Sequence record: NC_073314.1 | Length of the DNA stretch: 45,805 bases | DNA from: Escherichia virus fEg-Eco19 | Reading direction: 5' to 3' (one strand) | Part shown: positions 10,991 to 37,400 of the stretch, in pieces | Position numbering within the stretch: the stretch's first letter is position 1 | Layout: every line of letters begins with the position of its first letter | Notes under the pieces: generated by a model | The model's database searches: none | What the model was told of the DNA's origin: nothing | What the model saw: only the letters and a program-made list of their open reading frames with translations | Made by a program: the position numbers and the translations under genes

Positions 10991-11350
10991 ATGAATCTTA
11001 AAGCAACTGTCGTAGCCGGAGCATGTTTCGTCGTCCTAGCCTACGCACACGGCATCTATCAATACCGCAGCGGCTGGGGTGAAGGCCGTGCTAATCTCGT
11101 TTCGCAGCAGCAGCAGAAAGCACAGGCCGCGCTGGTGAAGAAAACACAACGGCAGCAGCAGGATGAATCAAAGGCCGCCGCCGCTGACAACGAAGGCAAA
11201 ACGAAATCAGAGGTGATAACCCGTGAAGTCGTTAAGTACATAAGTCGACCCAATAAGGTATCTTGCAAGTTTGACGCTGATAGAGTTAGAATCAAATACG
11301 ACGCTGTCAACAACGCAAACGGGATACCAGGGTATGACGATATTAAATGA
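10991..11350 (+). CDS. putative i-spanin (Rz-like)
   Basis: N-terminal TM helix, then Q/K/A-rich helical region, conserved Cys near C-terminus; 119 aa. Confidence 0.4.
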   Translation: MNLKATVVAGACFVVLAYAHGIYQYRSGWGEGRANLVSQQQQKAQAALVKKTQRQQQDESKAAAADNEGKTKSEVITREVVKYISRPNKVSCKFDADRVRIKYDAVNNANGIPGYDDIK

Positions 11351-11840
11351 TACTTTCTACTACGATGATGGGGTTCTTTACTGGCGTAGCAGTAAGCTCG
11401 CCAATAAAACAGGAACCCCAGCAGGGTGCCTAACTACGCCGAAAGGCGCAAAACGGCGACAGACGATAGAGGTTAGATGGATGGGGAAGGCGTTTCAAGC
11501 GCACCGTCTTATATGGGAACTTTTCAATGGGCCAATTCCGACGCCATATGAGATAGACCACATTGACGGGAACCCACTCAACAATCGTATAGAAAATCTA
11601 AGGCTTGCTACTAGCCAAGAGAACAGTCGTAACGTTGGTCTCACGTCCGCTAATAGTACAGGGTTCAAAGGGGTTTCCAGGTTCCCAAACGGCAGATTCC
11701 GTGCGGACATAAGAATCCGCAACAAGACCAAATACCTCGGTCAGTTCGACTCCCCCGTCGACGCACACAAGGCCTACGTGCAAGCTGCCAAGAAGCTACA
11801 TGGAGATTTTTTCAAATGCGACTGCCAATATTGCTCTTAG
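11334..11840 (+). CDS. HNH homing endonuclease with AP2-like domain
   Basis: AHRLIWELFNG...EIDHIDGNPLNNRIENLRLATSQENSRN, then GFKGVSRF...AYVQAAKKLHGDF; paralogous to 31390..31875 and 33289..33786. Confidence 0.75.
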   Translation: MTILNDTFYYDDGVLYWRSSKLANKTGTPAGCLTTPKGAKRRQTIEVRWMGKAFQAHRLIWELFNGPIPTPYEIDHIDGNPLNNRIENLRLATSQENSRNVGLTSANSTGFKGVSRFPNGRFRADIRIRNKTKYLGQFDSPVDAHKAYVQAAKKLHGDFFKCDCQYCS

Positions 11841-12055
11841 TTATATGGTGCTACGGGTGCTCAAGTCCCGCGCCGTCGTCAATGCCAACTCCGTCCCCGG
11901 ATACGACGATGATGCAGCCGCCGTGCAAACTGGCACCGCCAAGTAGCGACGCTGACGAGGATTTAGCTATCGACGTTCAGAACGCCGAATGTGTACGGCA
12001 ACTGAGACTGAAAGTGTTCATGTTGCAGGATTACGTGAGGAATATTCTGGAATAG
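11816..12055 (+). CDS. putative o-spanin (Rz1-like lipoprotein)
   Basis: MRLPILLLVIWCYGC signal with lipobox-like YGC, then Pro-rich PAPSSMPTPSPDTTMMQPP; overlaps HNH 3' end. Confidence 0.4.
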   Translation: MRLPILLLVIWCYGCSSPAPSSMPTPSPDTTMMQPPCKLAPPSSDADEDLAIDVQNAECVRQLRLKVFMLQDYVRNILE

Positions 12056-12137
12056 TTGCCTTGCATGTTGGAATAATTTATTCTTGACATGTAAATCCGG
12101 GTGGCCCGGGTTCCAACGTCCAGGGGACATACTGACT

Positions 12138-12839
12138 ATGAATCGTTTTTTACGTTATCCGTTCCAGGAAGAAGCTGGAGCAGAAGATAAATCTGGTGGC
12201 GGTGACGCTCCGAAAATGTTCACCGCTGAAGAAGTTCAGGCGCTGATTGAGAAAGAAGTTGCCGGGCTTAAGGCCAATCAGGAAGCATTGCTGGCGGAGA
12301 AGAAAGAAGCCGCCCGCAAAGCAAAAGAGGCCGAAGAAGAACGGCAGCGCGCACACCAGGAGGCGTTAAAAGCCGCTGGTAAGATGGATGAGTTCGAAAA
12401 GACGATTCGTAGCCAGTATGACCCGGTGTTAGCCGAGAAAGATGGTCGCATCTCCAAAATGGCGGAGCGCATCCTCGGCAGCGAACGTAAAGCGGTGTTA
12501 GGCTCTTTCGCAGGTGACTTTATTACCCCGGAAGCAGTAGACATTCTTGCTCCGTTCGTTAAGACTGAGTTCGAAGGTGATGATGTGGTTACTAAGTTTG
12601 TTGGGCCAGACGGCGGTGTAATCACGACTGACCCTGAACAGTTCCGCAAATACCTGCGCGAACACAAAGCGTTTTCGCATTTGATTAAAGCAAATGCAGC
12701 TTCCGGCGGCGGGGCTTCCGGTGGCAAAGGCGGCGGGGCCGCACCAGCGTTTAAAGACATGAGTGAAGCAGAGCGTTTAGCTCTGTATAAATCGAACCCT
12801 GCCGAATTTGAACGGCAACTTAAAGCCCTGAGGAAATAA
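12138..12839 (+). CDS. scaffolding protein (by position and composition)
   Basis: Internal ATG of track ORF 12084..12839; acidic coiled-coil protein directly upstream of major capsid gene. Confidence 0.5.
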   Translation: MNRFLRYPFQEEAGAEDKSGGGDAPKMFTAEEVQALIEKEVAGLKANQEALLAEKKEAARKAKEAEEERQRAHQEALKAAGKMDEFEKTIRSQYDPVLAEKDGRISKMAERILGSERKAVLGSFAGDFITPEAVDILAPFVKTEFEGDDVVTKFVGPDGGVITTDPEQFRKYLREHKAFSHLIKANAASGGGASGGKGGGAAPAFKDMSEAERLALYKSNPAEFERQLKALRK

Positions 12840-12841
12840 TA

Positions 12842-13891
12842 ATGGCAATTACCACTATCGGCGATATCGTAACCGGCAACATCCCGGTCCTGGCGTCTTA
12901 TATGACCGAGGACCCGGTAGAAAAAACCGCGTTCTTCCAGTCCGGTATCCTTACCCCTACTCCGTACGCCGCTGAGATTGCCCGCGGCCCGTCCAACGTC
13001 GCTAATATTCCTTTCTGGAAAGCGATTGATACATCTATCGAGCCGAACTACTCGAACGACGTATACCAGGACATCGCAACCCCGCGTAACGTGCAGACCG
13101 GCGAGATGATGGCGCGCGTTGCGTATCTGAACGAAGGTTTCGGTCAGGCGGATCTGACTGTAGAACTTACCAGCCAGAACCCGCTGCAATCCGTAGCGTC
13201 TCGTCTTGATAACTTCTGGCAGCGCCAGGCACAACGCCGTCTGATTGCTACCGCGCTCGGTCTGTACAACGACAACGTAGCTGCTACCGACGCATACCAC
13301 AAGCAGAACGACATGGTCGTAGACGTGTCCGCTACTCCGGGCTTCGACTCCGGCGCGTTCATCGATGCTACCCAGACTATGGGTGACGCTCTGATTGGCA
13401 ACGGCGGTGAAGTGTTGGGTGCTATCGCGATGCACAGCTTCGTTTATGCGCAGGCACGTAAGCAACAGCTTATTGACTTCATCCGCGACGCTGACAACAA
13501 CACCATGTTCGCCACCTACCAGGGCTACCGTGTGATTGTTGATGACAGCATGACCGTAGTCGGTACAGGTAGCGACCGTAAGTTCATCTCCATCATCTTC
13601 GGCAACGGTGCTATCGGCTACGGAGAAGGTAACCCAACCAATCCGCTGGCCTATGAGCGCGAAGAGTCTCGCGGCAACGGCGGCGGTGTAGAAACCCTGT
13701 GGACCCGTAAGACCTGGTTGCTGCATCCGTTTGGTTACAGCTTCACCAGCGCGGTAATCACTGGCAACGGGACCGAGACTATCGCCCGCTCTGCTTCCTG
13801 GCAGGACCTGGCGAACGCCTCCAACTGGAACCGTGTTGTTGACCGTAAGCATGTACCGATTGCCTTCCTGGTAACTGGTGCCGGGGCTTAA
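12842..13891 (+). CDS. major capsid protein
   Basis: 349-aa ORF after scaffold, followed by strong terminator. Confidence 0.7.
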   Translation: MAITTIGDIVTGNIPVLASYMTEDPVEKTAFFQSGILTPTPYAAEIARGPSNVANIPFWKAIDTSIEPNYSNDVYQDIATPRNVQTGEMMARVAYLNEGFGQADLTVELTSQNPLQSVASRLDNFWQRQAQRRLIATALGLYNDNVAATDAYHKQNDMVVDVSATPGFDSGAFIDATQTMGDALIGNGGEVLGAIAMHSFVYAQARKQQLIDFIRDADNNTMFATYQGYRVIVDDSMTVVGTGSDRKFISIIFGNGAIGYGEGNPTNPLAYEREESRGNGGGVETLWTRKTWLLHPFGYSFTSAVITGNGTETIARSASWQDLANASNWNRVVDRKHVPIAFLVTGAGA

Positions 13892-13907
13892 GGTTAAGCT
13901 ATAATCG

Positions 13908-13931
13908 AGAGGGACTTCGGTCCCTCTTTTC
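13908..13931 (+). terminator. rho-independent terminator
   Basis: AGAGGGAC-ttcg-GTCCCTCT followed by TTTT. Confidence 0.6.
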
Positions 13932-13950
13932 ATTTACTAAGAGGTAAATT

Positions 13951-14321
13951 ATGGCTAAGACTGGAAAAGGCTTGCCGCGCAGCCTTCAGAATGTCGACTT
14001 CGGCGACCTGGACATCAGCGTAGGCTGGGGAGAAGTAACAGGTAAACCGGCGGTAATCGCGGCGGGGCGACCCAAGAGGCGGCACGTACCGCTATTGGTG
14101 CAGGTACGTCAAGCCTTGCGATCGGAACAACTTCGACTACCGCGATGGCGGGAAATAAGTTCGTTCAGGGTGCTGCGGTTACAGACGTCGGCACGCAGAC
14201 CGTTACGGGTGAAGAGGCTGCTGCGGTTGCTACGTCCGCACAGACTGCGGTTAACGCGGTAGGCACTCAACTTAACGCCTTACTGGCACAACTTCGTGCC
14301 GCTAAAATCATCGCATCCTGA
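13951..14321 (+). pseudogene. structural gene with apparent -1 frameshift near a G-run at ~14061-14068
   Basis: Track ORF 13951..14262 turns Arg-rich and junk-like after ...AVIAAG; the -1 frame from ~14067 to stop at 14321 reads a natural Ala/Thr/Gly-rich sequence ending LNALLAQLRAAKIIAS. Confidence 0.4.
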
Positions 14322-14332
14322 GGAGCTTAAAA

Positions 14333-14674
14333 ATGGTTGATGTAATTAAACGTCGTATTACTGGTGTGTCCGCCGATACCGTGGGTGCTAAAATCGATAT
14401 GGCAAATATCTCGCCAGCGTCTTTCTCTTCCGCGCCGGCGGCTACTACCTCCGTTACCACAGGTGGAACCATGACACTGACCGTAGTGGTAACTGGCGGT
14501 CTGGAGCCGTATTCCTACCAGTGGTACAAAGATAACAACGCCATCGACGGAGCCACCGCAGCTACCTATGCGAAGGCGTCCACTACTACCGCAGATTCAG
14601 GCACGTATAAAGTGGTTGTTCACGATGTGTATGGTAATATTATCTCCAGCAGCACCGTAGCAACTGTGTCTTAA
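14333..14674 (+). CDS. Ig-like domain protein (possible head decoration)
   Basis: YSYQWYKDNNAIDGATAATYAKASTTTADSGTYKVVVHD resembles an Ig-like domain. Confidence 0.45.
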   Translation: MVDVIKRRITGVSADTVGAKIDMANISPASFSSAPAATTSVTTGGTMTLTVVVTGGLEPYSYQWYKDNNAIDGATAATYAKASTTTADSGTYKVVVHDVYGNIISSSTVATVS

Positions 14675-14710
14675 TACAACGGCCCTTCGGGGCCGTAATA
14701 AGGAAAGGTC

Positions 14711-14890
14711 ATGGCAGATAATTACGTAATCCGCGAAAAGTACACCCACGTTGATATTGTTGACGGTCAGGTAATGCCGGTTCGCGGTGTTGTAGAAGCG
14801 GATGAACTGGTTGCGACTCAACCGGACAACGAAGAAGCGCACAACAACGGCGGTGGTACTAAGCGTCGTCGCCGTAAGTCAGAGGAATAA
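14711..14890 (+). CDS. small hypothetical protein (59 aa)
   Basis: AAGGAAAGG RBS; translated by eye; basic C-terminal tail. Confidence 0.35.
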   Translation: MADNYVIREKYTHVDIVDGQVMPVRGVVEADELVATQPDNEEAHNNGGGTKRRRRKSEE

Positions 14891-14893
14891 TTT

Positions 14894-15406: not shown

Positions 15407-15408
15407 AA

Positions 15409-16023: not shown

Positions 16024-16117
16024 TGAATAAGTTCACATGTGGTGTAGTTTTTGGTTTTCTTACCGCGGTAGTCTTGCACAGTTACGGTGTTCTTTTGACG
16101 CTGCAAGAGGTGCTAAA

Positions 16118-17282: not shown

Positions 17283-17284
17283 AT

Positions 17285-18451: not shown

Positions 18452-18493
18452 CTTGTGGTATAAGAAGAGTAAAGGATAGCTTTAGCGGGCGAA

Positions 18494-18525
18494 AAAGAGA
18501 GGGGTCGTGCCCTCTCTTTCCTTTA
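18494..18525 (+). terminator. rho-independent terminator
   Basis: AAAGAGAGGGG-tcgt-GCCCTCTCTTT followed by T-rich tail. Confidence 0.5.
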
Positions 18526-18558
18526 TACGGTAAATACACGAGCCTGACGAGGTGAATA

Positions 18559-19191
18559 ATGTTCTTGTATGAAGAATTTGAAAAGATACCAGCATCAAAA
18601 CGGGCGGTATCATGCCGTAAAACAATCTGCGGAGTCGGTGTCAACGATGCAGATTTCACCACCAGTATTTTCAACGGCAAAAAGTCTGTTAACCACCCGG
18701 TGTACGATATTTGGTGTGCGATGATATTCAGGTGCTACCATGGGTCCGTTAAGCATCCAACATACTCAGGAGTGGTAGTGTGTGAAGACTGGCTGTATTT
18801 CTCCAACTACTTTAAATGGTACAAAGATAACTACGTAGAGGGTTGGCATGTTGACAAAGATTTGCTTACGGATTCTAAAGAATACTCACCGGATACCTGT
18901 ATATTTGTCCCAAGAGTTTTAAACAACTTTCTAACCGACAGCGCAGCGGCTAGAGGTGACCTACCGATAGGCCTTACTTATAGGAAAACAAACGGCAAGA
19001 TTCGATGCAGGGTTAATAATCCGCTAACCGGGGTGCGCGAAAACTTAGGCGATTTTACCGATTTGGATGAAGCCATCAAGGCCAGAACGCTGCGGAAGTT
19101 AGAGATAGCCGGAGAACTTAAGCCACTTATGGATTCCATAGACGGGAGAATCTATCCGAGGGCCGTTTCTGTAATTAAGGCACAACGATAA
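18559..19191 (+). CDS. HNH endonuclease (YGGRGI/EGW-DKD-YSP family)
   Basis: ICGVGVNDADF...IWCAMIFRCY...YVEGWHVDKD...YSPDTCIFVP; paralog of 24270..24920; AT-rich. Confidence 0.55.
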   Translation: MFLYEEFEKIPASKRAVSCRKTICGVGVNDADFTTSIFNGKKSVNHPVYDIWCAMIFRCYHGSVKHPTYSGVVVCEDWLYFSNYFKWYKDNYVEGWHVDKDLLTDSKEYSPDTCIFVPRVLNNFLTDSAAARGDLPIGLTYRKTNGKIRCRVNNPLTGVRENLGDFTDLDEAIKARTLRKLEIAGELKPLMDSIDGRIYPRAVSVIKAQR

Positions 19192-19196
19192 AACTA

Positions 19197-19220
19197 AGGC
19201 CCCTTTCGGGGCCTTTTTCT
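19197..19220. terminator. bidirectional hairpin terminator
   Basis: AGGCCCC-tttc-GGGGCCT with T-run; sits between convergent genes. Confidence 0.5.
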
Positions 19221-19450
19221 TACTCATCAATGTTACTCCGGTATTCCCGTAACTTCTCCAGGCTTTCAATTGCTTCCGCCAAGTCGGTTCCCGTGTCTTT
19301 GTGCCCGCGAAGGCCCATACACAATAGCTTCTTTAATGCGTGCTGTAGCGCCGGGTCGCGGATGTCGAAGGCGCGTAGCACATCATAAACGTCTACTGTC
19401 ATAGTGCTGCCGTGGGTGTTTGTCATTGTGCGGTTGTATTTATTTGTCAC
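19220..19450 (-). CDS. small hypothetical protein (DUF3310-like pattern)
   Basis: QHALKKLLCMGLRGHKD...DLAEAIESLEKL resembles a common small phage protein family; last gene of a 4-gene minus-strand operon. Confidence 0.4.
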   Translation of the reverse strand: MTNKYNRTMTNTHGSTMTVDVYDVLRAFDIRDPALQHALKKLLCMGLRGHKDTGTDLAEAIESLEKLREYRSNIDE

Positions 19451-21175: not shown

Positions 21176-21595
21176 ATGAAACTTTCTGATTTTTATTTCG
21201 AAGAGAAAGCACTGGTAGGCAAGAAGATGCCGATTCTGCTACCAAACGGCGAAGACTCTGGCGAGTGGCTTAATGTTGTAAGCCCGGATGCAGATGCTGC
21301 CGTTAAAGCGGGGCGTGCTTTCATTATCGCGTACCGTCGCGGGTTGGCGCGCTTTGAAGAACTGGAAAAAGCCGCCAAAGAATCCGGCGACTATACTGAG
21401 TACAACCTGTCGGTTAACGAACTAGCGGAAGACCTCAACCGTCAACTCGCGGCAGAAGTCGTAAACGGCTGGAGTTTTGACGATGAGCCTTTCTCTAAGG
21501 AAGCATTTAACAAATTGCTCGACCAGTTCAAAGGGCTTGGAACACAAGTAGCGGCGTTTCATAACGCTGAACGTAAAGCATTACAGGAAAAGTAG
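21176..21595 (+). CDS. tail assembly chaperone (G-like)
   Basis: 139-aa acidic protein immediately upstream of tape measure. Confidence 0.5.
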   Translation: MKLSDFYFEEKALVGKKMPILLPNGEDSGEWLNVVSPDADAAVKAGRAFIIAYRRGLARFEELEKAAKESGDYTEYNLSVNELAEDLNRQLAAEVVNGWSFDDEPFSKEAFNKLLDQFKGLGTQVAAFHNAERKALQEK

Positions 21596-21960
21596 ACGCG
21601 CTGTACAGGTTCGCCACCTATGAGTTCGTTGATAAGCATAAAATCAGAGAGTTTGATTCTATAGCTGACGGGCACGAACAGGCGCTTATCGCGATGGGTG
21701 TAATCGATAAGAAAAAACGTGCAGCGCGACGGGGCGGGCCAGAATGCCCGCCCCTTTTTATATCCACCTTTGAGACGTATTGCGACATTAAGTTTACGCG
21801 ACACGTGCGCGAGGACGCTGTAGTATTGTTTGCAAGAGAATCCGTTACGTGGCAAGACCTGAAAGCCTATCTCGATGTTACGCAAAAACAGCTTAGCCTG
21901 TTCGAGATAGACATTATCATGGGCTTAGAAGCAATCTTTGAAGGTAGAAATCATGGCTGA
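21577..21960 (+). CDS. -1 frame extension (T segment) of tail assembly chaperone
   Basis: The -1 frame is open from ~21577, overlapping the last 6 codons of G, and runs to 21960; candidate slip at G-GAA-AAG (~21586-21592). Confidence 0.4.
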   Translation, partial: SITGKVDALYRFATYEFVDKHKIREFDSIADGHEQALIAMGVIDKKKRAARRGGPECPPLFISTFETYCDIKFTRHVREDAVVLFARESVTWQDLKAYLDVTQKQLSLFEIDIIMGLEAIFEGRNHG

Positions 21961-24226
21961 TACCGCTAGCTTGATAGTACGAGTATCATCGACCGGCGTC
22001 GATAAAACCACATCACAATTGAACGGGCTTACCAAAGCCGCAGGTGCTGCCGCGGCTGCCGTTGTCAGTCTGGAAACCGCAAAACAGGTGTTCAGTGCGC
22101 TGGTGGACTCTCAGCGCAACTTCGATAAGCTGAACTCCGGCCTCATCACAATGACCGGGAGCGCCGAGAACGCGGCTAAGGCTTTCAGCGTCCTGCAACA
22201 GTTCGCAAAAGAGACTCCATACGGGCTTAACCAGGCGGTTGAGGGCTTCACTAAACTTGTAGCCCTCGGCCTGAACCCCAGCAAAGAGGCGTTAATCTCC
22301 TACGGCAATACCGCCGCTGCGATGGGTAAAGACCTTAATCAGATGATTGAGGCCGTAGCCGACGCCAGTACCTTTGAGTTTGAGCGACTGAAAGAGTTTG
22401 GCATCAAGTCGTCGCAACAGGCGGATACGGTTTCTTTCACGTTCCGTGGCGTAACGACTACTGTTAAGAAGAACTCCGAAGAGATTCAGAAATACCTGCT
22501 AAACATCGGTAACACTGATTTCGCCGGGGCGATGGAGACGCGCTCGAAGACCTTAGACGGTCAGTTATCCAGCTTGGCGGACTCTTTCGATGGTCTTGTA
22601 CTCGCAGTTGCGCAATCAGGTTTCGGCGACGCCGTAGGTGAGCAAGCTGCGAAGGCAGAAGATGCGATCACGGCACTTACCGACGCCATCGCGTCTAATG
22701 AGATAGCCGCCACGCTCCAGGATTGGGTGACACTGTTCAATGAATCGTTCAAGTTTATTTCTGATGCCTTAAACGACCTGGCATACGATACAGAGGACAA
22801 ATCCGTGGATATGTCCGACTCTCTGGGGACTATCCCGGACGCTATTCGTGAATGGTTGCCTGACATCCAGCAGACGTTTCACGAGGTTATTGCGTGGTTC
22901 CAGCGCATTGACGATTACGCCGTAGCGTTAGGTCAGACCCTTGCCGACGTGTTTGACCCGAGCAAAACGGCGGCACTCACATTTAAAAACCTGACCGCAG
23001 AAGCTGACGCCGCATACGTCGCCAGCATAAAACGCGCCGAGGCCGAATCACAGGCCATCACCAACAGGTCTAAGCAGCGTAAGAAAGAAATTGAGGAACA
23101 GCGCAAGCAGTACGACGAGCGCAAGAAGCAAGAAATTGACTTAGCCAGCCTTGTTAATAAAAAAGGTGGAACTGGCGGCACCGGAAACACCGACGATAAA
23201 GACGCGAAAGCCGCCGCTAAGAAAGCGGAGCAATTGCGTAAACAGGCTCAGGATTATCTGGACACTTTGGCCCGTCAGAACAACGACGAGTTAAAGGCTA
23301 TTGACGCCCAGGAACAGCAGAAACTGGCTAAAGCAAAAGAGTTCTACAGCCAGGGCGCGTTGTCTCTGAAAGAATACGAGCAAGCAAAAACAGCTATCGT
23401 CCTCGAAGCCGGACAAAAACGGCAAGATGAACTGGATAAACGCCAGAAAGAAGCCCTGGAAAAGCAGCAGAAAGGCGACGACTTCATGGCCCAGATTATG
23501 GGTCAGAACGCTACTGAGCTTGAGCTTCTCGACATCCAGGAACAGCAGAAGTTGGCGGTAGCCGATAAGTACCGTGAACAGGGTCTGATTAGCGAGAAGC
23601 AGTATCAGGCCGCGCTCAACGCCATCAACGAGCAATACGCCACCAAGCGTGCTGAGGCAACGGCAACGGCCTTTGGTAACATGGCCTCAAATATCGGGTC
23701 CGCGTTGGGCGAGGCTTCTGGCGCATATAAGGCATTCGCTATCGTACAGGCCACTATCGCCACGTACACCGCAGCTATTGAAGCGTATAAGTCAACGGCC
23801 GCTATCCCTGTTGTTGGTCCGTTCCTGGCACCTGTAGCCGCTGCTGCTGCCGTTGGGGCGGGTATGGCGCAGATTTCCGCTATCAGGTCCGCCCGTGAAC
23901 AAGGCGGTCAGTTATCTGCGGGGCAGGCTTCTACTATCGCCGAACGTGGTAAACCAGAAGTTATCATGCCCGCGGGCGCATCGCGGGTTCGCACTGCACA
24001 GCAGATGAAAGAAATTATGGGGCAAAACGGCGGCGGTACCGGGCCGGCCAATATCAGCATTATAAATAACACCAGCGCACAAATTGGTAATACCAGTGTT
24101 GAACAGGACGAAGAAGGCCGCTTGCGTATCATCATAGAGGAGCAAGTTGCTGCTTCACTGCAGAATAGTAACAGCAAAATATCGAAAGCTAGGAAGGCTA
24201 CAAGAAACGCACCCGGCTTTAAGTAG
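21953..24226 (+). CDS. tape measure protein
   Basis: Long Ala/Gln/Lys-rich coiled-coil protein with internal EQQKLA repeats; follows G/GT. Confidence 0.8.
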   Translation: MADTASLIVRVSSTGVDKTTSQLNGLTKAAGAAAAAVVSLETAKQVFSALVDSQRNFDKLNSGLITMTGSAENAAKAFSVLQQFAKETPYGLNQAVEGFTKLVALGLNPSKEALISYGNTAAAMGKDLNQMIEAVADASTFEFERLKEFGIKSSQQADTVSFTFRGVTTTVKKNSEEIQKYLLNIGNTDFAGAMETRSKTLDGQLSSLADSFDGLVLAVAQSGFGDAVGEQAAKAEDAITALTDAIASNEIAATLQDWVTLFNESFKFISDALNDLAYDTEDKSVDMSDSLGTIPDAIREWLPDIQQTFHEVIAWFQRIDDYAVALGQTLADVFDPSKTAALTFKNLTAEADAAYVASIKRAEAESQAITNRSKQRKKEIEEQRKQYDERKKQEIDLASLVNKKGGTGGTGNTDDKDAKAAAKKAEQLRKQAQDYLDTLARQNNDELKAIDAQEQQKLAKAKEFYSQGALSLKEYEQAKTAIVLEAGQKRQDELDKRQKEALEKQQKGDDFMAQIMGQNATELELLDIQEQQKLAVADKYREQGLISEKQYQAALNAINEQYATKRAEATATAFGNMASNIGSALGEASGAYKAFAIVQATIATYTAAIEAYKSTAAIPVVGPFLAPVAAAAAVGAGMAQISAIRSAREQGGQLSAGQASTIAERGKPEVIMPAGASRVRTAQQMKEIMGQNGGGTGPANISIINNTSAQIGNTSVEQDEEGRLRIIIEEQVAASLQNSNSKISKARKATRNAPGFK

Positions 24227-24233
24227 TAACAGA

Positions 24234-24258
24234 AAGGCCCGAAAGGGCCTTATTTCTC
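24234..24258. terminator. hairpin terminator (bidirectional context)
   Basis: AAGGCCC-gaaa-GGGCCTT followed by ATTTCTCC. Confidence 0.5.
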
Positions 24259-24269
24259 CAGCCTCTGGG

Positions 24270-24920
24270 CTAACGACCCTCTTTTATCAAGGCGATAACG
24301 CGGTCGAACATACCTTCCCTTATCGCCTCTATCTCACATCTTCTTGATTCCGCCGCCCTTATCTTTTCAACAATGTAAGCATCTAGCGCTTCTTCCTGAG
24401 TTTCAAAACGTCCTAGATTAATAGTTTTTTTATCACAGCTCACTGAGGCTTTAAATTTACCTCTAGATTCTTCATAAAAAACACCTGTAGGTGTTCCACT
24501 ATTTTTCTTCTCCTTTAGGAAAACATTCAACCATTTCGGGATGAAAATGCAAGTGGTAGGGCTGTATACCTTATTAATACCAGAGAATATGTCCTTATCT
24601 AGCTCCCATCCCTCCACATAATTACAAAGCCACCATCTACGGAAGGACATAAACCTTTGCCACCCATGCCACACAGTTACATCCCTGTACGCAGGCCTTT
24701 TGTTTTTATACTCGGCGTCCACGCAACGTTGGATCATCCCTCGCCATGTAGCGTACGCCAGACACGTCTCACGGCTGCCGTTTATCTTGGGGCTAACCAC
24801 ATAATCGGCGTCATTTATGCCAAAACCACATATAGTTGCGCGCTTAGTTTTGCTGCTTTTGTTCGCAGGATAATTCGCACGCAGCCACATGCTCTTGGCT
24901 ACTTTTTCGGTTGGCATCAT
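24270..24920 (-). CDS. HNH endonuclease (YGGRGI/EGW-DKD-YSP family)
   Basis: Internal ATG with AGGAGA RBS; ICGFGINDADY...YVEGWELDKD...YSPTTCIFIP; paralog of 18559..19191; AT-rich. Confidence 0.55.
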   Translation of the reverse strand: MMPTEKVAKSMWLRANYPANKSSKTKRATICGFGINDADYVVSPKINGSRETCLAYATWRGMIQRCVDAEYKNKRPAYRDVTVWHGWQRFMSFRRWWLCNYVEGWELDKDIFSGINKVYSPTTCIFIPKWLNVFLKEKKNSGTPTGVFYEESRGKFKASVSCDKKTINLGRFETQEEALDAYIVEKIRAAESRRCEIEAIREGMFDRVIALIKEGR

Positions 24921-24955
24921 GTTAGTATCTCCTAAACTAATAGGAGTATCTTGCC

Positions 24956-25456
24956 ATGTCTTCTTTGAAATTTCCAGCAAGTTTAAAGCCGGTGGTGTCG
25001 AAAGGCTACTCAATGACCAGACGTAACAACGTCTGGAGCGTCGATTTAGCTGGCGGAGGTGTACGTCAGGGACGCGACACGTATTACGACGTGTTCCCGA
25101 TAAGCGTAACCCTGATTACATCGGCGCTAGGGCGGCAGGCGTTTCTGTCGTTCCTTGAGAAAGTCGATGGCGGTGCGTCAAGTTTCTGGATGGCACATGA
25201 CTTCGGCATGGGTATCGAGGATTACCAGGTAACAATCACGTCAACCATCGCTGAGTCCACCGAAGACGGGATTAACTGGACAATTACTTTCACGGCAACC
25301 GCTGAGAAATCGCCGTTCCAGGATCTTGAGAACCAGTGCCTGATTAACAATCTGCCGGATTTGTACGGTTGCTATGGTGACGGGCTGGGGTGTTTCCTTA
25401 AAGCCTACGGAACTGCACAATCAACGTTTCCACGAATTTGGGACCCGATGCAATGA
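24956..25456 (+). CDS. minor tail protein (distal tail, M-like by position)
   Basis: First tail gene after tape measure; AGGAG RBS. Confidence 0.45.
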   Translation: MSSLKFPASLKPVVSKGYSMTRRNNVWSVDLAGGGVRQGRDTYYDVFPISVTLITSALGRQAFLSFLEKVDGGASSFWMAHDFGMGIEDYQVTITSTIAESTEDGINWTITFTATAEKSPFQDLENQCLINNLPDLYGCYGDGLGCFLKAYGTAQSTFPRIWDPMQ

Positions 25457-31225: not shown

Positions 31226-31231
31226 ATAAAC

Positions 31232-31258: not shown

Positions 31259-31389
31259 CTCTTCTGATAGCTTCTCCAGAACAAACGCCAGTTGCGCATT
31301 AGCTGCGTCTCTTTGCTGCCGTAGTCGTAGAACCTCTTCTTCAAGTTCCTTGATACGTTTTTGCAATGCTGGAATCGGGGCTATGATGT

Positions 31390-31875
31390 TCACGTCGTTT
31401 CTCCGTGGTTTTCATGAAATCCGTAAGCAGCCTCCGCGGCTTTACGCGCGGCAACAGCTTCGTCAAAATTATCAAACTGTCCTAGATGTATTTTTCTTCT
31501 GTCGACTTTTATCTCTGCCACCCATTTGTTTCTTCTCTTTTCCCGCCATACACCAAGAGCGCCGCTAGTATTGTTTACCCCTATTGATGCGTTGCGGCTA
31601 TTTTCGGTGTTGGTAACTTTCCGTAGGTTGCGTATTCGGTTATCAGTTCGTATATGATTAATGTGGTCTATCTGTTCCTGTGGCGTAAGTTGGTTATCTG
31701 GATTGCAGATATTCCATGCTAACCGGTGTGCTAGTTCTAGTTTTCCGTTTACTCGGATACGAATGTACCCATCCCGTGGACAAAAGCATCCCGCTTTCTT
31801 TCCAATAAAACCCCTACGTTTTGTTTCAGCCCATGTGAAAATACCGGTTTCAGGGTCGTATGATACCTTGCTCAT
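31390..31875 (-). CDS. HNH homing endonuclease with AP2-like domain
   Basis: AHRLAWNICNPDN...IDHINHIRTDNRIRNLRKVTNTENSRN, then GALGVWRE...AAYGFHENHG. Confidence 0.75.
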   Translation of the reverse strand: MSKVSYDPETGIFTWAETKRRGFIGKKAGCFCPRDGYIRIRVNGKLELAHRLAWNICNPDNQLTPQEQIDHINHIRTDNRIRNLRKVTNTENSRNASIGVNNTSGALGVWREKRRNKWVAEIKVDRRKIHLGQFDNFDEAVAARKAAEAAYGFHENHGETT

Positions 31876-33296
31876 TTCTTACTCCTACGTTTCATATACT
31901 CAAGGAGGATATCCTGCACCTGTTTTTTCTCGTCTGTGCGTGAAGTGACAACAGAATCCAACGTATCTTTAGCAATAATCTTGTAGATAAAAACAGGGCG
32001 ATTATACCCCGATTGCTTTTGCCGTACTGGCCCTATGCGCTCTACAACCTGTAAATAGTGTTCGAGGTTCCACCCCTGACTGAAAAATGCCATATGATGG
32101 CCGCCGTCTTGTAGCGATATGCCGTGCCCGGCTGACGCGGGGTGCACGCATAAGATTTCGATTTCACCGCGGTTCCACGCTTCCATCTGCTTATTGCCCT
32201 TCGCACCTTTGGCGAACGCCTGTGCCTGAGGGAATCGCTTAAGGATACGCTCAAGTTCGTGCTTAAACTGATAAGCTACCAGTAACGGTGCACCCTGTAG
32301 CTCCTCCACAATCGACTCTAGCGCATCCAGTTTCGTGTCGTGCACTTTCTCCCATTCTTTGGTTGCTTCACCGTCCGGCCCTGATACATACACAGCACCA
32401 GATGCAATCTGTAAACACTTCGACGTCTTTGCTGCCGCGTTAGCCGCTTCAACTTCTCCGCTCTCAAGTTCCGCGAATAACTTTTCCTCCATATCGATGT
32501 ACGCCTGGCGCGCCTTCTTCGGCAGGTCGATTTCAACAGGGACGATAACGGGCGCTTCGCAGCCAAACCACTCGGCAGCGTCAATCGTGAGACTGATGTC
32601 CTTCATCTTCTGGTGAATTTCATTATCCGCGCCAGGGCGCGCATGATACTCACGTGCCATAGCCGATTTGCCTTTCTGGACAGAGTTAAACCATCGGTCG
32701 GTGAATGCCGTGTATGAAGAACCGAGGCGCTCGCCAGCGTCGATAAACCAGTTCTGACCCCACAAGTCTTTGAGGCCGTTCGGTGACGGCGTTCCCGTCA
32801 GGTTGATGAAACGCTTAACCTTACCGAATGCCACTTTACTAAGCGCCTTTGCCCGCTTGCTGCCACCTGAACGGCTACGGAAAGATTTCAGTTTCGTGCT
32901 TTCATCGGCAACAATAACCGTAAAAGGCCAGTCGTCTTTGCCGTAATAGTCAATAAGCCACTCGATAACTTCGTAGTTTGTACAGACCACATTAGCGTCT
33001 GACTCCAGCGCCGCGATGCGGCGCTTCTCCGAACCAGTTGCATCTACGACGCGCAGACAAGGGAAGTTCCAACGTGCCTGTTCCGCGGGCCACGTACCGG
33101 ATGCAACACGTAAAGGAGCCAGAATTAATACCCGGTCGTAGTCCGTAAGTTGGCCGTTGCGGAACAGTCGGTTGAGAACCCACAACGTTGACCCCGACTT
33201 GCCGCTGCCCATCGAAGCCCAAATATTACAGCGAGGGTGCTGCAACATGAACGAAGTCATGAGCTTTTGGTACTCCCTGCGGGTAAATTTAGCCAT
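31872..33296 (-). CDS. SNF2-family (superfamily 2) helicase
   Basis: Walker A MGSGKSGS, motif II VIVADESTKLK, C-terminal QVVERIGPVRQ. Confidence 0.65.
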   Translation of the reverse strand: MAKFTRREYQKLMTSFMLQHPRCNIWASMGSGKSGSTLWVLNRLFRNGQLTDYDRVLILAPLRVASGTWPAEQARWNFPCLRVVDATGSEKRRIAALESDANVVCTNYEVIEWLIDYYGKDDWPFTVIVADESTKLKSFRSRSGGSKRAKALSKVAFGKVKRFINLTGTPSPNGLKDLWGQNWFIDAGERLGSSYTAFTDRWFNSVQKGKSAMAREYHARPGADNEIHQKMKDISLTIDAAEWFGCEAPVIVPVEIDLPKKARQAYIDMEEKLFAELESGEVEAANAAAKTSKCLQIASGAVYVSGPDGEATKEWEKVHDTKLDALESIVEELQGAPLLVAYQFKHELERILKRFPQAQAFAKGAKGNKQMEAWNRGEIEILCVHPASAGHGISLQDGGHHMAFFSQGWNLEHYLQVVERIGPVRQKQSGYNRPVFIYKIIAKDTLDSVVTSRTDEKKQVQDILLEYMKRRSKK

Positions 33297-33786
33297 TATT
33301 AACCCCGTGGTTGGTATGGAAACCGTATTCTATTTCTGCGGCTTTACGTACCGACAATGCCTCTTCGAACGTCTTAAATCTGCCTAGTTCCATAAGTATT
33401 GTTTTTACACGTATGCGCGCTCGCCAAATACCTTCTTTTATCAAAAATTCCACACCAGTTGCGCCGGTCTTATTACATGTGTACAAGCTCTTGTTCTGCA
33501 TGTTTTGTTGCGTTGTAACCTTACGTATGTTGTCCCCTCTGTTGTTAGTTTTGTCATGATCTATGTGGTCTATTTCATCGTCCGGCCCTAATAAATCATC
33601 AGGGTGTAACGTATCCCACGCTAAACGATGCGCCTGATACATCTTTCCGTCTATTTTTATCCTGACGTAGCCGTTACTTTTACTGCCGCCCGCTATGGAG
33701 CCAGCGGAACGACCTCGCGGGGCAACCACCCATGTGAAAATCCCGGTGTCTGGGTTATAGTCCAGTCTGCCGTCGAAGCATTTCAT
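33289..33786 (-). CDS. HNH homing endonuclease with AP2-like domain
   Basis: AHRLAWDTLHPDD...IDHIDHDKTNNRGDNIRKVTTQQN, then GATGVEF...AEIEYGFHTNHG. Confidence 0.75.
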   Translation of the reverse strand: MKCFDGRLDYNPDTGIFTWVVAPRGRSAGSIAGGSKSNGYVRIKIDGKMYQAHRLAWDTLHPDDLLGPDDEIDHIDHDKTNNRGDNIRKVTTQQNMQNKSLYTCNKTGATGVEFLIKEGIWRARIRVKTILMELGRFKTFEEALSVRKAAEIEYGFHTNHGVNNG

Positions 33787-33974
33787 TTTGCCACCAGAAC
33801 CAGCTCTTTACGCCCGAACGCCGTAACGTTACCCGTTACATCTTCAATAACCAGTTTACCGTTCGACTCGACGAACACCGTGTCAACGGCAACAGGACGA
33901 CGTGTTTTAACGTTGAAAATCATGTCGCCCGGTACGATGTCACGTGCTGGTTTGCGGTCATATTCGTGTTTCAT
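33783..33974 (-). CDS. small hypothetical protein
   Basis: 63-aa ORF ~25 nt downstream of promoter at ~34008-34036. Confidence 0.4.
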   Translation of the reverse strand: MKHEYDRKPARDIVPGDMIFNVKTRRPVAVDTVFVESNGKLVIEDVTGNVTAFGRKELVLVAK

Positions 33975-34004
33975 TTCTCAATTCCTTATATTGTTGGTGT
34001 GTGA

Positions 34005-34292
34005 TTAACTATAATAGTTCGCTATTAGGTCGTCAACCTGTTTAAACGAACCGACGACAAAAACATTAGCACCACGCTTACGCATCCGCTCGTGTTCCCG
34101 TAACTGGTGTGGGTCTGGCTTCGTGTTTTCGTCTTTCTTAACCTCGACAAACCAGACGATGCCGCCAGGGAGAATTACCAGCAGGTCGGGGGCGCCTACT
34201 CTATTTTCGTACGACAATTTGCGTACGAGGCCCCCCAGGGCCTCGAATCGCTCTTTTGCGTATTTCTGGATGCGCCCCTCAGGCGTACTCAT
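34005..34292 (-). CDS. VRR-NUC domain nuclease
   Basis: GAPDLLVILPGGIVWFVEVKK...HQLREHERMRKRGANVFVV matches the PD-(D/E)XK core of VRR-NUC proteins. Confidence 0.6.
   Translation of the reverse strand: MSTPEGRIQKYAKERFEALGGLVRKLSYENRVGAPDLLVILPGGIVWFVEVKKDENTKPDPHQLREHERMRKRGANVFVVGSFKQVDDLIANYYS
34008..34036 (-). promoter_or_regulatory. sigma70 promoter TTGACG-N17-TATAGT with AATAG-N4-CTATT palindrome in spacer
   Basis: Reverse complement reads TTGACGacctaatagcgaactatTATAGT. Confidence 0.45.
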
Positions 34293-34494
34293 CTATGCAC
34301 CCCTCCCGTTTGGTATGCTCAATCCCACAGCGCGGACAGATTCGGCAGTCTTCTTCATAAAACCAGTAAATTTTCATTCCAGCACCCACAGATAAATTGC
34401 GATGAACATGCCTAATACGGCGACAATCATGCCATATTGGCCCTCGTAACAGTAGACACCGGCGGCAAACCCAGCCAGTACCGCGATAATCAGT

Positions 34495-37400
34495 TTACTT
34501 AGCATAGCGTTTCAACTCCGCACCTTCCGCTACAAGAGGGAAGCCTTCTGCCCACTCCGGCAACGCGCACATTAATTTCTCCAGTTCAGCCACCGTGTAC
34601 TCTGGGGTGTCCGGAGTTTCACACACCAGTTCATCGTGTACCGAAAGCACGATAGGATACCCACCACCCTCAACGTTAATCATCGCATATGCCAGTAAAT
34701 CACGGCACAGCGCCTGAACAATGTTTTCACAGGCTTTGCCGCCGTGTGTGTATAGAGTTGTCCATTGGCGGGTTAACTGGTTTTCACCCTGATACTTGAT
34801 TCGCACATTCGTGTTCATCCGTCCGTCTTCGTCTGTTTCCTTTGTCACGCTAACGCCGATTCCCGGATACGAGAGGATACGGCCCGACGGCAACTCCATA
34901 CACAACCACCAACCAGGAACCTTCCTGCCGGATGAATCAAATTCTACAGTACGCCATATGCGGATAGCCCTTTCCCCATTCCTGCGCAAGTGTGCCCCCG
35001 CCCAAAATTCACGACCGGGATTACGAACAGCAGCTAAAATTCCGTCTTTAAGGTCGCGCCAGAACGCTACTGTTTCCGGGTGTGACTCGCGCCACATACG
35101 CTTGATTGCGTCACATGTGCGCCACACTTTCTTATCAAGAATATACGATGGTCGGTCATCCTTTTCACCCGGATGCGGTGGTCGCTTGGCTTCCTGAATA
35201 CGCGCCCACTCATACCCACGCGCGGTAGCAGCCCAGATGTGGTCGGGGAAAGTCCCGTCCATTGTTTTTGCCATCTCAATAAGGTCAAGACCTAAGTTTT
35301 TAGCGAACGTAACGAATGCTCCGACGCCGCCTTCGTATCCGAGTCCAAGCTCGCAGTTATGCGCCACAAGAAAGCCAGAGTCGGAAGCGATAAGAAAACG
35401 GTTGCCGTCTTCCACATCAATCAGGTCGTACACTGGCTCGCAGTAGGTTAATTTCCCGTTCAAGCTCAGCAATGCGGGCAACGGCTGCATCATACTTTCG
35501 TTGAAGCTCAGGTATTCGCCGTCTGTTACGGCAGTTTTCAGAACGGCTGACAAACCGAATGTTTCCAGGTTCGTAGTTACCGTCTGTGTCGATTCTATCC
35601 ATTTCGAGGTTCGGGTCATCCCAGCCTTCCAGAGTTTGAACATATCTAAGAAAAGACCTTTTATCAGTCCTCCACTGGTCAAATACCGTGATGCCTCTTG
35701 CCCCATAGTTTTTATAACCCTTATCCCTGGGGCTTGTTGTCCGCGTGATTGCCGCGGACAGCCGGTTGAGTAATCGCGTTCTGTGCACATCATCCGGCAT
35801 TGCGTCTTCGTAGCAGAAATATTGTTTACGATATTTTTTTGTTGCTTCAAGGGCGCAACGGTTGCATTGAGTGGTTTTACCTGCTCTGACATTGTCATAA
35901 TAGACCCGCCCCGGCATCTCTCCGCAATCACATTGGACGAGTAGTTGTCTTTGGCCTTGTCGTTTTGGTAACTCGCGCAGGATAACCAGGCGTCCATACC
36001 TATCTCCAGGGCGCGGTCCATCATATATTTGTTTGAAACGAGTTGCTTTGCCTGCTTCCAGGAATGCGTCAAGATTTTGTGGTCTTCGGTCATTAGCACC
36101 CCGTCCACATTTATCACCGGTTTCCACCCCATAAGGTGCGCGCCTTTTGTATTCACCCATTTTTCGCCACTCCATACTTTATCTGTCGATGTGACCGCCA
36201 TAATATCCTTAAATCCGCCATAGGTCAAAACTTGGGTATGGCGGTGAAGGCAGGCTTTACCAATCTGGCGTAAGTCTTTGCGTTCTTTCTTAATGTAATC
36301 CGGCTCCATACCAAACATCTTACCCGCGGTTACGCAGTAAATATCCAACCCGGCGCGGAACGTATCGAGCGCGGTTTCTTCACCAGCCAGCCACGCAAGC
36401 CCTCGGCCTTCAACGTTAGAGTAATCGGCAACAACAAACTTATGTCCGGCTTCCGGTATGATGCAGCTACGAACGGTCGATGCCGTTAGCTTGGCCACAT
36501 CGAAACGGCGATGGGCGCGACCCTTAAGTAACGCCGAAATGCCTTTATCCAGCTCATCATCGTGATAGTAACCGCGTGCCAGGTTCTGCGGCTGGAAGCC
36601 TTTACCAGCCCATCGCAGAGTACGTTTTGCCCCACCGTACTGCAAGCAACCACGACGGCGGTCGTCGGACGAGCGGCCTAACAGCAATGGGTTATATTTC
36701 GTTGACGCGGTAGACGCGGCCCCGAGGCGCATTTCGATAATCGCGCGAGCGTCGTCTGGTAAATCATCATCCGAAAGCAGGTCATTAAGCGTCGACTTCT
36801 GCGCATTGTGGATGCGGTGCGCTGGGGCAAGCTCACGCAGAATCGGCAGAAAGTCCTTACCAGTAAGCGAGCCGCCGTATTTGCGTTGGGCTTCTTCCTG
36901 CAACCGTGCCTTGTGCTTCTCCACAGCTTCAATCGCGGCTTCTGCCAGGGCAACGTCAACCTTAAACCCGCGGTCGTTGATTAACTGGTCCAGTTCCAGT
37001 ACACGGTCTTCGAACTCGGAGTTACCCCACCGCGGCAGCTTATGGAAGACTTCACGCATTGCGGTGATGTCACTCACGGCGTATTTGATGAACAGTACCC
37101 ACTCGTCCGGGTGTGTTTCAGCGGTGTAGCGACGGATTTTGTAGTTCTTCGGCGTCGGTTTAGAGAAACGCTGAATCAGCGCCTTGCCTCGTTTGTCTTT
37201 CGCGTTGTCTGCTGACACGCCCAGCACTTCGCACAACGCATCGAGGGAACCCGGCAGCGCGTGACGAAACGCCCAAATCATCGTATCAATGGTGTTGCCT
37301 ACAGGAATATCAAAGTCCCAGCAGTGTTTCATGATGAGCCTATCGAACATTGAGCCGTTGTGCCATACCATCTTGATGCGACTGTTCGGCTTAACCAGAC

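Follow-up and report, generated by a model that had tools for sequence, protein, structure and literature searches.

Six putative homing endonuclease genes in coliphage fEg-Eco19, one of them nested out of frame in a DNA polymerase intein

The genome of Escherichia virus fEg-Eco19 (sequence record NC_073314.1; all 45 805 nucleotides are referred to below as the window) contains six genes that resemble HNH endonuclease genes. The question they raise is whether they are mobile elements and, for the last of them, in what form an endonuclease gene can reside within the gene of a DNA polymerase. The phage is a Kagunavirus-like coliphage of the Guernseyvirinae, and the genes are designated here g1, g2 and g3 (the HNH_3 genes), g4 and g5 (the DKD genes) and g6 (the intein-nested gene); their coordinates are collected in Table 1. 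A first-pass annotation of the same DNA had listed six corresponding open reading frames (ORFs) and proposed that they were homing and could explain local mosaicism. All six ORFs were found, and they match PHROG HNH families with E-values from 1e-47 to 1e-68. Comparison with related phages makes it quite probable that all six are selfish elements, site-specific and of the His-Me-finger (HNH) type, each at a fixed site of its own, the sixth being a composite of the intein and g6.

The polymerase intein and the gene in its other frame

The polymerase is annotated as a 3099-nt coding sequence in all eight intein-bearing relatives inspected. Its ORF in fEg-Eco19 stays open as far as 37647 (TTG), i.e. 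18 codons 5′ of the conserved ATG, the start annotated in the eight relatives corresponding to 37593. Within the insertion that interrupts motif B, the splicing residues of a class-1 intein are present, namely C1, T55 and H58 (TEDH, block B), H298-N299 and the +1 Cys, and these are invariant in 22 diverse members (H298-N299 corresponds to H125-N126 in the mini-intein alignment). A splicing-part profile, built from the N- and C-terminal regions of 22 diverse inteins, aligns to the whole of the Spl DnaX mini-intein 7cfv with an E-value of 3e-5, and also matches the Neq Pol, RecA PI-MtuI, DnaE and NrdJ-1 inteins. Splicing of the precursor is a prediction, made from the essential role of the polymerase and from the purifying selection acting on the splicing blocks. 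A group I intron was considered in place of an intein and rejected, because the ends of the insertion evolve as protein in the polymerase frame and because of the similarity to HINT profiles; no Rfam match was obtained at the gathering score or at E-values up to 1.

The first-pass annotation was right in placing g6 inside the intein, but g6 is not an in-frame intein domain: the reading frame of g6 differs from that of the polymerase/intein ORF, and no endonuclease domain, the hallmark of the canonical bifunctional intein, was found in the polymerase frame. The ORF spans 35417-36175, and the ATG that opens it at 36175 is followed by a stop codon in 8/8 relatives examined; the conserved start of g6 is the ATG at 36160, which has a GGAG upstream. 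The AlphaFold2 model of the protein has a pLDDT (predicted local distance difference test) of 80.

Each of the two frames bears its own mark of selection. The alignment of nine inteins needs no gap; none of them has a stop in the polymerase frame, all nine are open in the g6 frame, and the third frame contains ~30 stops. There are 103 variable sites in all, and those of nucleotides 240-830 are split 8/49/19 over intein codon positions 1/2/3 (chi-square p 2e-8), so that 49 of the 76 fall on intein position 2, which is position 3 of the g6 codons, while at both ends of the intein the variable sites fall on intein position 3. For codon differences in the middle of the intein, the nonsynonymous/synonymous ratio is 4.99 if they are read as intein codons and 0.44 if they are read as g6 codons; over the first 150 nt the corresponding values are 0.30 and 43.7. 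From the position of the variable sites and from these ratios it follows that the ends of the intein are under selection for the splicing domain, and its middle for the g6 protein. Read in the polymerase frame, this middle part has no family match and is free of stops (chance expectation ~20, P about 2e-9); judged by these measures, the in-frame stretch over g6 is no more than an unconstrained, stop-free linker. The two frames seem to fit each other closely: the ~60 disordered N-terminal residues of g6 overlie the conserved N-terminal splicing region and the conserved core of g6 overlies the linker, i.e. the conserved segments of each frame lie over unconstrained segments of the other.

These data bear directly on the possibility that g6 is a chance ORF in the intein, or else that frameshift errors make an ordinary HNH intein, all in one frame, look like two genes. 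Such a reading could draw on the lack of any annotation of g6 in the GenBank polymerase records of all eight intein-bearing relatives (one of which is labelled ‘intein-containing DNA polymerase precursor’) and on the lack of a Pfam match for g6. However, variability that peaks at position 3 of the homing endonuclease gene (HEG) codons, with the contrast of 0.44 to 4.99 between the frames, is not what a chance ORF would give, nor is a phrog_374 match at 1e-47 together with 316 database homologues (E below 1e-5). The artefact version would need two compensating frameshifts in every record, and the same indel-free arrangement is found in nine phages and nesting in 79/80 independent metagenomic loci (see below). 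We consider this explanation extremely improbable.

Among the homologues of g6, gp39 of Sodalis phage SO-1 and a protein of Salmonella phage SS3e are named ‘HNH endonuclease’ by NCBI. The ‘dpol’ inteins of SETP3, SO-1 and APSE are listed in InBase. Long contigs were available for two homologues (50% and 54% identity), and both are likewise nested at -1 in a PolA motif-B intein. A scan of IMG/VR with peptide patterns derived solely from the endonuclease returned 288 relatives, and the best 80 (43-98% identity) were examined. Nesting at -1 was found in 79/80 of these loci, inside an ORF of 1.8-3.8 kb that lies one frame ahead; only the SS3e record, which is frameshifted, deviates. In 78/79 nested loci the intein ends with ...HN/C followed by motif-B residues, and the alignment of the N-extein to the K1G polymerase stops at the same insertion site. 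The nested loci represent 64 distinct inteins of 277-299 aa, and their exteins are mostly just 25-50% identical to K1G. Among cultured phages, g6 is present at 80% identity or above in 161 records, and in every one sampled from the listing it lies under a gene annotated as DNA polymerase. With nesting in 79/80 IMG/VR loci, the endonuclease of this clade appears to be obligately nested out of frame. The next relatives of g6 (25-42% identity) are mostly free-standing HNH genes, e.g. in Staphylococcus Kayvirus. Some distant relatives (31-33% identity) are nested at +1 in PolA inteins, in Streptococcus phage Javan255, Caulobacter phage RW and APSE-7; in Javan255 the intein occupies the same motif-B site, and in RW and APSE-7 a different PolA site (...GGK/CEN..QA.ARD). 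The nestings in these three suggest that overlaps between an intein and an HNH gene arose repeatedly or are very old.

How g6 would be translated can be approached from the same loci. The ATG of the HEG is made of the last base of one codon and the TG of the Trp codon in the conserved WDGxxWV motif of the intein, and the TGG-GAY-GG codons upstream of it provide a sequence like that of Shine-Dalgarno (SD) in 34/58 distinct contexts. Internal initiation at the ATG at 36160, formed by the Trp codon of the intein and with GGAG upstream, is most likely for fEg-Eco19. One could instead imagine a programmed -1 ribosomal frameshift, which would yield a fusion of N-extein, N-intein and HNH protein. The position of the HEG, at exactly -1 to the intein in 79/79 nested loci, would agree with that, as would SD-like sequences in just 34/58 distinct contexts. 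What makes it quite unlikely is the beginning of the ORF, where 56/58 distinct contexts retain an ATG with GG directly after it (‘MG’); in 22 of them a stop in the HEG frame lies 0-3 nt upstream. Furthermore, inspection by eye revealed no X XXY YYZ slippery heptamer near the g6 start of fEg-Eco19, and the distant nested relatives Javan255, RW and APSE-7 use the +1 frame. Internal initiation therefore remains the preferred reading. As to the element as a whole, we lean towards regarding the PolA motif-B intein with its -1 DRID-type HNH gene as an old, stable and widespread composite mobile element, and not as a rare transitional accident.

The intein also seems to have moved. It is 92.5-97.5% identical to the inteins of eight other phages, mostly phages of Salmonella. 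Set against its exteins, the intein is 96-97.5% identical and the exteins 72-92%; distal N-exteins of those phages are just 72-73% identical, identity decaying with distance from the intein. Near-identical copies of the intein are found in different genera.

Insertion sites and spread of the cassettes

Positions 10500-33500 of the window match 506 phage records in a megablast search. The closest are Escherichia phages fPoEco01 and fFiEco02 (Kagunavirus), with ~92% identity over 80% of the query, and the Salmonella Jerseyvirus phages are more distant. According to whole-genome BLAST, fEg-Eco19 and fPoEco01 are collinear except for a limited set of fEg-Eco19-specific segments. The genome is 45.8 kb long vs 41-45.7 kb in relatives, and the six elements total 3.7 kb, ~8% of it. 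The first-pass annotation had suggested a search for empty insertion sites in relatives, and had named the presence of all six genes in every relative as the pattern of fixed, non-mobile genes. The alignments gave empty sites or other cargo for the elements, and none of the six is fixed.

Using each cassette with ~650-bp flanks as a query against phage records, we found g1 with both flanks in 1/268 matching records, the flanks being contiguous in ~100 Kagunavirus records. The corresponding counts are 10/295 for g4 (the site is elsewhere empty or occupied by a dNMP kinase, a polynucleotide kinase or an acid phosphatase gene), 4/131 for g5, and 4/447 for g3 (some relatives have a cytosine methylase there). 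The intein-bearing polymerase is found in 147/442 records. Orthologues of g2 with at least 80% amino-acid identity are present in 67 records, in all of which they adjoin the helicase gene, both in Jerseyvirus (including phage Jersey) and in Kagunavirus; g2 is missing from fPoEco01, VIPECOMC04 and K1G. At the g3 site nothing is inserted in NRG857CP3 and fPoEco01, and a Dcm methylase gene is found there in K1G, JSSK01 and phage 26. fPoEco01 has g4 and the intein with g6, and is without g1, g2, g3 and g5. Since it has an HNH cassette of its own at a site that is empty in fEg-Eco19 (Table 1), the two closest genomes differ in both directions, each having elements that the other is without; the cassette (3846-4555 of the stretch compared) contains a putative HNH gene of 208 aa.

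Could the six genes be fixed, domesticated phage components, such as packaging-associated HNH proteins or regulators? The translational coupling of g2 and g3 to the helicase gene would be in keeping with this, and AP2-type DNA-binding domains could be those of regulators. Nevertheless, each of the six is missing from most close relatives, all of them viable isolates, the closest relative is without four of the six, and none adjoins the terminase genes, so that domestication is a very improbable explanation.

Two observations concern the sites themselves. In other Kagunavirus genomes the g3 site (~33297-33795) and the g4 site (~18452-19193) hold unrelated cargo, and from these genomes both sites look like general hot spots for accessory genes. 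Escherichia phage EM1 has two phrog_99 HNH genes within 1.5 kb (940-2430 of the stretch), a g3 orthologue and another beyond a VRR-NUC gene, which indicates that a high local density of HEGs is not unique to fEg-Eco19.

Had the elements simply been inherited, and lost here and there, they should have diverged like their surroundings. Each cassette was compared with that of the best ‘filled’ relative, and the differences were set against those in the flanks (Fisher test). The g4 cassette is identical to that of fFiEco03 over 742/742 positions, with 66/1209 differences in the flanks (94.5% identity; p 1e-14). The g5 cassette shows 17/764 differences (97.8% identity) vs 142/1237 in the flanks (85.3% and 91.8%; p 1e-15), and the g3 cassette 17/507 (96.6% identity) vs 161/1244 (90.5% and 83.5%; p 8e-11). 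These contrasts make loss alone insufficient as an explanation, and recent lateral spread of g4, g5, g3 and the intein is supported by sequence comparison of this kind.

A homing cycle would account for such contrasts. Upon co-infection with a relative devoid of the element, the encoded nuclease would cut or nick the empty allele near the insertion site, and recombinational repair off the element-bearing genome would copy the cassette together with flanking DNA; the expected outcome is a patchy distribution, cassettes younger than their flanks and divergent tracts alongside. In the composite sixth element, the splicing domain would be read in the polymerase frame and g6 would be made as a separate -1-frame protein.

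Divergent tracts were looked for in the helicase gene, of which the identity to HEG-bearing and HEG-less relatives was profiled in 100-bp bins. As the first-pass annotation had noted, g2 and g3 lie on either side of this gene, whose product has a Pfam SNF2-related domain (44.6 bits vs 24.9). The ~300 bp next to g2 (about 31872-32171) are 66-77% identical to g2-less phages and 88-98% identical to the g2-bearing ORH_001, and the ~300 bp next to g3 (about 32972-33296) are 75-85% identical to g3-less phages and 89-92% identical to the g3-bearing EM1, the middle of the gene being ~90% identical to all the phages compared. Such tracts are expected from co-conversion of flanking DNA, or may reflect hitch-hiking of cleavage-resistant target variants. 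With divergent tracts adjoining elements in both the helicase and the polymerase genes, the suspected local mosaicism is borne out, and the alignments support both it and the mobility of the six genes.

The first-pass annotation had put the genes at module boundaries. That applies to g4, at the end of the rightward head-tail block and ahead of a shared bidirectional terminator, and to g2, which separates the tailspike gene from the leftward replication block; g5, g1 and g3 each have genes of a single module on both sides, and g6 is inside a gene. The neighbours had been named correctly: g5 is flanked by the tape measure gene and the next tail gene, g4 comes after the tail tube gene, and g1 is located between the Rz-like and Rz1-like spanin genes. 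Richness in AT was verified for g2-g5 (44-46% GC vs 50.2% for the genome) but not for g1 and g6 (48.5-48.8%).

From the junction alignments, the cassettes are shown to spare their neighbours, apparently by several means. The g2 start overlaps the helicase stop codon by 4 nt and the g3 stop codon overlaps the helicase start by 8 nt, so that this gene would be spared by start/stop coupling at both ends. For g1 it is substitute Rz/Rz1 ends that would serve. The genes of Rz (128 aa) and Rz1 (87 aa) have an overlap of 155 bp in K1ind1 and fPoEco01; in fEg-Eco19 and VIPECOMC04, where the g1 orthologue is annotated as ‘HNH endonuclease’, the cassette supplies, 5′ of g1, a recoded Rz C-terminus (...RIKYDAVNNANGIPGYDDIK, then a stop), and a new Rz1 signal peptide with lipobox (MRLPILLLVIWCYGC) overlaps the last 25 nt of g1. 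The former Rz1 start, in this arrangement, hits a stop codon. The g4 cassette, which separates the tail-tube stop codon from the shared terminator (hairpin 19196-19215), brings a hairpin of its own that would serve the tail tube gene. The g5 orthologue in VIPECOTH07 is annotated as ‘HNH endonuclease’, and the g5 cassette contains a hairpin 3′ of the tape measure gene together with a recoded ribosome binding site and first ~12 codons for the downstream gene.

Some other features near these sites may be mentioned. The 34 bp at 19189-19222, including the terminator hairpin after g4, are 100% identical in 67 otherwise diverged Salmonella Jerseyvirus records, where they mark the junction of the major tail protein gene and a DNA-binding/Ant gene; this perfect conservation could be due to the terminator function, or to a recombination or target site. 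The region 21343-23372 (3′ region of the tail assembly chaperone gene and central tape measure gene), which precedes the g5 insertion, is unaligned or 73-83% identical to fPoEco01, the genome average being ~92%. A ~900-bp difference at the g5 site of K1ind2 was considered as an alternative HEG and rejected, since it corresponds to a longer downstream tail gene (466 aa) and not to an endonuclease. The product encoded downstream of the tape measure gene has ~466 aa and an added domain in K1ind2 (927-2327 of the stretch), NTEC3 and some BASEL phages, vs 166 aa otherwise. A seventh endonuclease gene was sought in the fEg-Eco19-specific segments and rejected as well: 1519-1956 is a member of an HslV-like peptidase family (145-aa ORF, phrog_1040 ‘peptidase HslV family’, E 6e-33; the segment 1521-1945 is not in fPoEco01) and 39765-40127 has no assigned function.

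Table 1. Position of the putative endonuclease genes, their cassettes and host genes in the window, with the basis of each assignment
Feature	Position	Strand	Basis
g6, ‘DRID’-type HNH homing endonuclease gene, 247 aa, -1 frame of intein	35417..36160	-	phrog_374 E 1.2e-47; frame-specific selection; conserved ATG
Class-1 intein, 299 aa	35356..36252	-	exact insertion vs K1G polymerase, PolA motif B (RQIGKA/CELGLGY)
Family A DNA polymerase precursor, 1032 aa from conserved ATG	34495..37593	-	Pfam DNA_pol_A 57.5 bits; alignment with intein-less K1G polymerase
g1, free-standing HNH_3 + AP2-like homing endonuclease gene, 168 aa	11334..11840	+	HNH_3 80.6 bits, AP2 28.9 bits, phrog_99 E 2.6e-59
g1 cassette, within Rz/Rz1 overlap	11243..11857	+	alignment with empty-site K1ind1, fPoEco01 and filled-site VIPECOMC04
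g2, HNH_3 + AP2-like homing endonuclease gene, 161 aa	31390..31875	-	HNH_3 38.8 bits, phrog_99 E 9e-64
g3, HNH_3-type homing endonuclease gene, 165 aa	33289..33786	-	HNH_3 34.9 bits, phrog_99 E about 1e-56
g4, ‘DKD’-type HNH-like protein with C-terminal AP2 DNA-binding domain, 210 aa	18559..19191	+	phrog_953 E 1e-68
g4 cassette, own upstream hairpin 18501-18513	18452..19193	+	junction alignment, fBC-Eco01 (empty) and fFiEco03 (filled); terminator scan
g5, second ‘DKD’-type HNH-like/AP2 gene, 216 aa, antisense to tail genes	24270..24920	-	phrog_953 E 1.6e-64, AP2 21.8 bits
g5 cassette, tape-measure stop codon to next tail gene	24227..24990	.	junction alignment, UTI89UKE1 (empty, flanks 98% identical) and VIPECOTH07
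SNF2-type helicase gene, divergent HEG-linked tracts at ends	31872..33296	-	Pfam SNF2-rel_dom 44.6 bits
Rz	10991-11350		spanin PHROG match
Rz1	11816-12055		spanin PHROG match
Empty site	9593..9607	+	15 bp where fPoEco01 has 710-bp HNH cassette between MuF-like and Hoc-like genes

Families, motifs and the weight of the evidence

The first-pass annotation had recognized two endonuclease families of three genes each. Comparison by BLASTP gives three groups instead: g1, g2 and g3 share 32-46% identity (45.5% for g3 vs g2), g4 and g5 are 35% identical, and g6 stands apart, with an E-value of 0.5 vs g4/g5. Of the proposed trio with EGW, DKD and YSP motifs, the relatedness of g4 and g5 therefore holds and the membership of g6 does not. 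As for the proposed three HNH-AP2 genes, HNH_3 was detected in all three (80.6, 38.8 and 34.9 bits for g1, g2 and g3, the Pfam gathering score being 24.8 bits), but AP2 is below threshold in g1 and g2. Profile matches to AP2 were nevertheless obtained, the Pfam scores being 28.9 bits for g1 and 21.8 bits for g5. In terms of PHROG families, g1, g2 and g3 all match phrog_99 (E about 1e-57 to 1e-64), g4 and g5 match phrog_953, named ‘HNH endonuclease’, and g6 matches phrog_374. In profile comparisons, the g6 family is weakly linked to the g4/g5 family by hhalign with an E-value of 1.7e-4, a probability of 49% and 70 columns, the HNH motif of g6 aligns with that of g1-g3 with an E-value of 0.009, and g4/g5 are linked to g1-g3 solely via a common AP2 domain (probability 95%). 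No Endonuclease_7 Pfam match was found for g6, only a weak match to phrog_1035 ‘endonuclease VII’ (E 1.5e-5), and single-sequence searches of the PDB with g4, g6 and the whole intein gave nothing useful.

The canonical D-H...N...N motif is limited to g1-g3 (EIDHIDGN...NL...QEN in g1), and D75, H76, N88 and N100 are invariant in the alignment of that family. This brings us to the observations that weigh against six homing elements. The general-base His is missing from g4 and g5, where D99-K100-D101 is invariant in 23 homologues, and from g6, where D188-R189 is invariant in 38 homologues; the distal Asn positions are retained (N122 in g4; N200, N209 and N212 in g6). None of g4, g5 and g6 has a Pfam HNH match. 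The Pfam search of the intein finds no Hint domain, and a hand-made mini-intein and g6 were also unmatched; solved inteins were reached only with the splicing-part profile of the family. The internal start in the g6 family has an SD-like motif in only the 34/58 distinct contexts given above. Finally, g1 and g2 are conserved no more than their flanks (p 0.71 and 0.45), which restricts the evidence for recent movement to g4, g5, g3 and the intein; from this comparison, g1 and g2 could have been resident for a long time and have been lost in other lineages, instead of having arrived recently.

Several of these points would be accommodated if the genes had been present from ancient times and repeatedly lost, those that persist being now inert relics or DNA-binding proteins other than nucleases, especially g4, g5 and g6. 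Invariant DKD and DR in place of DH, the divergence of g1 and g2 at the flank rate and the best structural match of g4, which is an AP2 DNA-binding domain, can all be read in that sense. It is difficult to reconcile with this a g4 cassette identical at 742/742 positions despite a flank difference of 5.5%, the similar behaviour of g5, g3 and the intein, or near-identical intein copies across genera. Moreover, the substitutions are invariant within each family and purifying selection acts on the HEG frames, which argues for function and not for decay. We therefore rate the relic explanation as unlikely and keep that of six selfish elements, for which nuclease activity and cleavage targets are predictions.

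Known counterparts and significance

That homing endonucleases, inteins and mosaicism occur here is ordinary and already recognized in Guernseyvirinae genomes; for Jerseyvirus, all three were recognized in general terms (PMC8425127). The g1-g3 genes are direct orthologues of ‘HNH (homing) endonuclease’ genes, a family annotated in Jersey, f18SE and many Guernseyvirinae, and they resemble the I-HmuI-like HNH_3/AP2 phage endonucleases (PF13392 + PF00847; phrog_99) in domain order, in the D-H...N...N motif and in intergenic placement. There is no essential difference from phrog_99 endonucleases, except that the placement of g1 in the Rz/Rz1 overlap, with substitute gene ends, is unusual. A precedent for the spanin arrangement exists in T5 vs Shivani/phiR201, where the spanin genes are separated by a GIY-YIG homing endonuclease gene (Kongari et al. 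2018, PMC6139136). There too, an overlapped Rz/Rz1 architecture becomes a separated one through a HEG insertion of ~0.6-0.7 kb, and the two architectures have different i-spanin C-termini and o-spanin lipoylation signals; Jersey-type spanins overlap by 155 bp, in agreement with the value seen here (PMC6139136). In contrast to that case, the gene in Kagunavirus is of the HNH_3/AP2 kind, the cassette visibly brings both replacement ends, and the old Rz1 start meets a stop.

For the intein with g6, three kinds of system may be compared. With canonical LAGLIDADG/HNH inteins it shares the insertion at a conserved catalytic site of an essential gene, the class-1 residues, the sporadic distribution and an intein more conserved than the exteins. 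In canonical large inteins the endonuclease belongs to the intein polypeptide, which is not so here. The first account of homing endonucleases encoded out of frame within inteins is a 2025 preprint on actinophages by Gosselin, Arsenault & Gogarten (10.1101/2025.01.02.630785); there the endonuclease is endonuclease VII-like (IPR004211, matching 1E7D), is located in ‘frame 3’, and was held to be rare and possibly transitional. The likeness is considerable: a same-strand ORF in another frame between the splicing blocks, an unstructured, stop-free in-frame filler, and signs of continuing horizontal transfer. The differences are that g6 encodes a DRID-type HNH protein (phrog_374) and not an endonuclease VII-like one, that the extein is PolA motif B, in enterobacterial and many uncultured phages, and that nesting is kept down to 43% HEG identity. 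The ShiLan element is an out-of-frame HNH gene inside an in-frame insertion of an actinophage DNA methylase (Arsenault et al. 2025, PMC11855218); here again the HNH gene occupies an alternative frame of an insertion that is open in the frame of the host gene, and the element is apparently actively homing. However, ShiLan has no detectable splicing domain, whereas the g6 intein has a full HINT domain (C1, TxxH, HN/C+1) that matches solved mini-inteins. Inteins were stated as unreported in coliphages in a 2024 paper (PMC11162368), and our literature search found no description of a PolA motif-B intein with a -1 DRID-type HNH gene.

The six genes amount to a textbook load of homing endonucleases and to ~3.7 kb of the size difference from relatives of 41-42 kb. 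As elements they explain the source of mosaic patches in the helicase and polymerase genes, which is useful for annotation and for phage taxonomy, if unsurprising. The composite of intein and g6 appears, on comparative grounds, to be a variant of a recently described architecture, conserved, widespread and finely co-adapted rather than accidental. It illustrates, in a compact natural case, how constraint can be partitioned between overlapping genes, and it comes with a new candidate nuclease family (invariant DR or DKD for DH) with known natural target sites. An intein and its endonuclease may thus persist as two overlapping frames across deep divergence, which bears on the ‘splicing first, endonuclease invaded later’ model of intein origin. 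Standard gene callers missed the nested g6, and surveys that judge inteins to be endonuclease-free by in-frame translation alone would, this suggests, undercount active elements. If our interpretation is true, inteins and endonucleases can co-evolve in the long term as an overlapping gene pair, and active endonucleases may lie concealed in another frame of many database inteins classed as ‘mini’ or ‘degenerate’.

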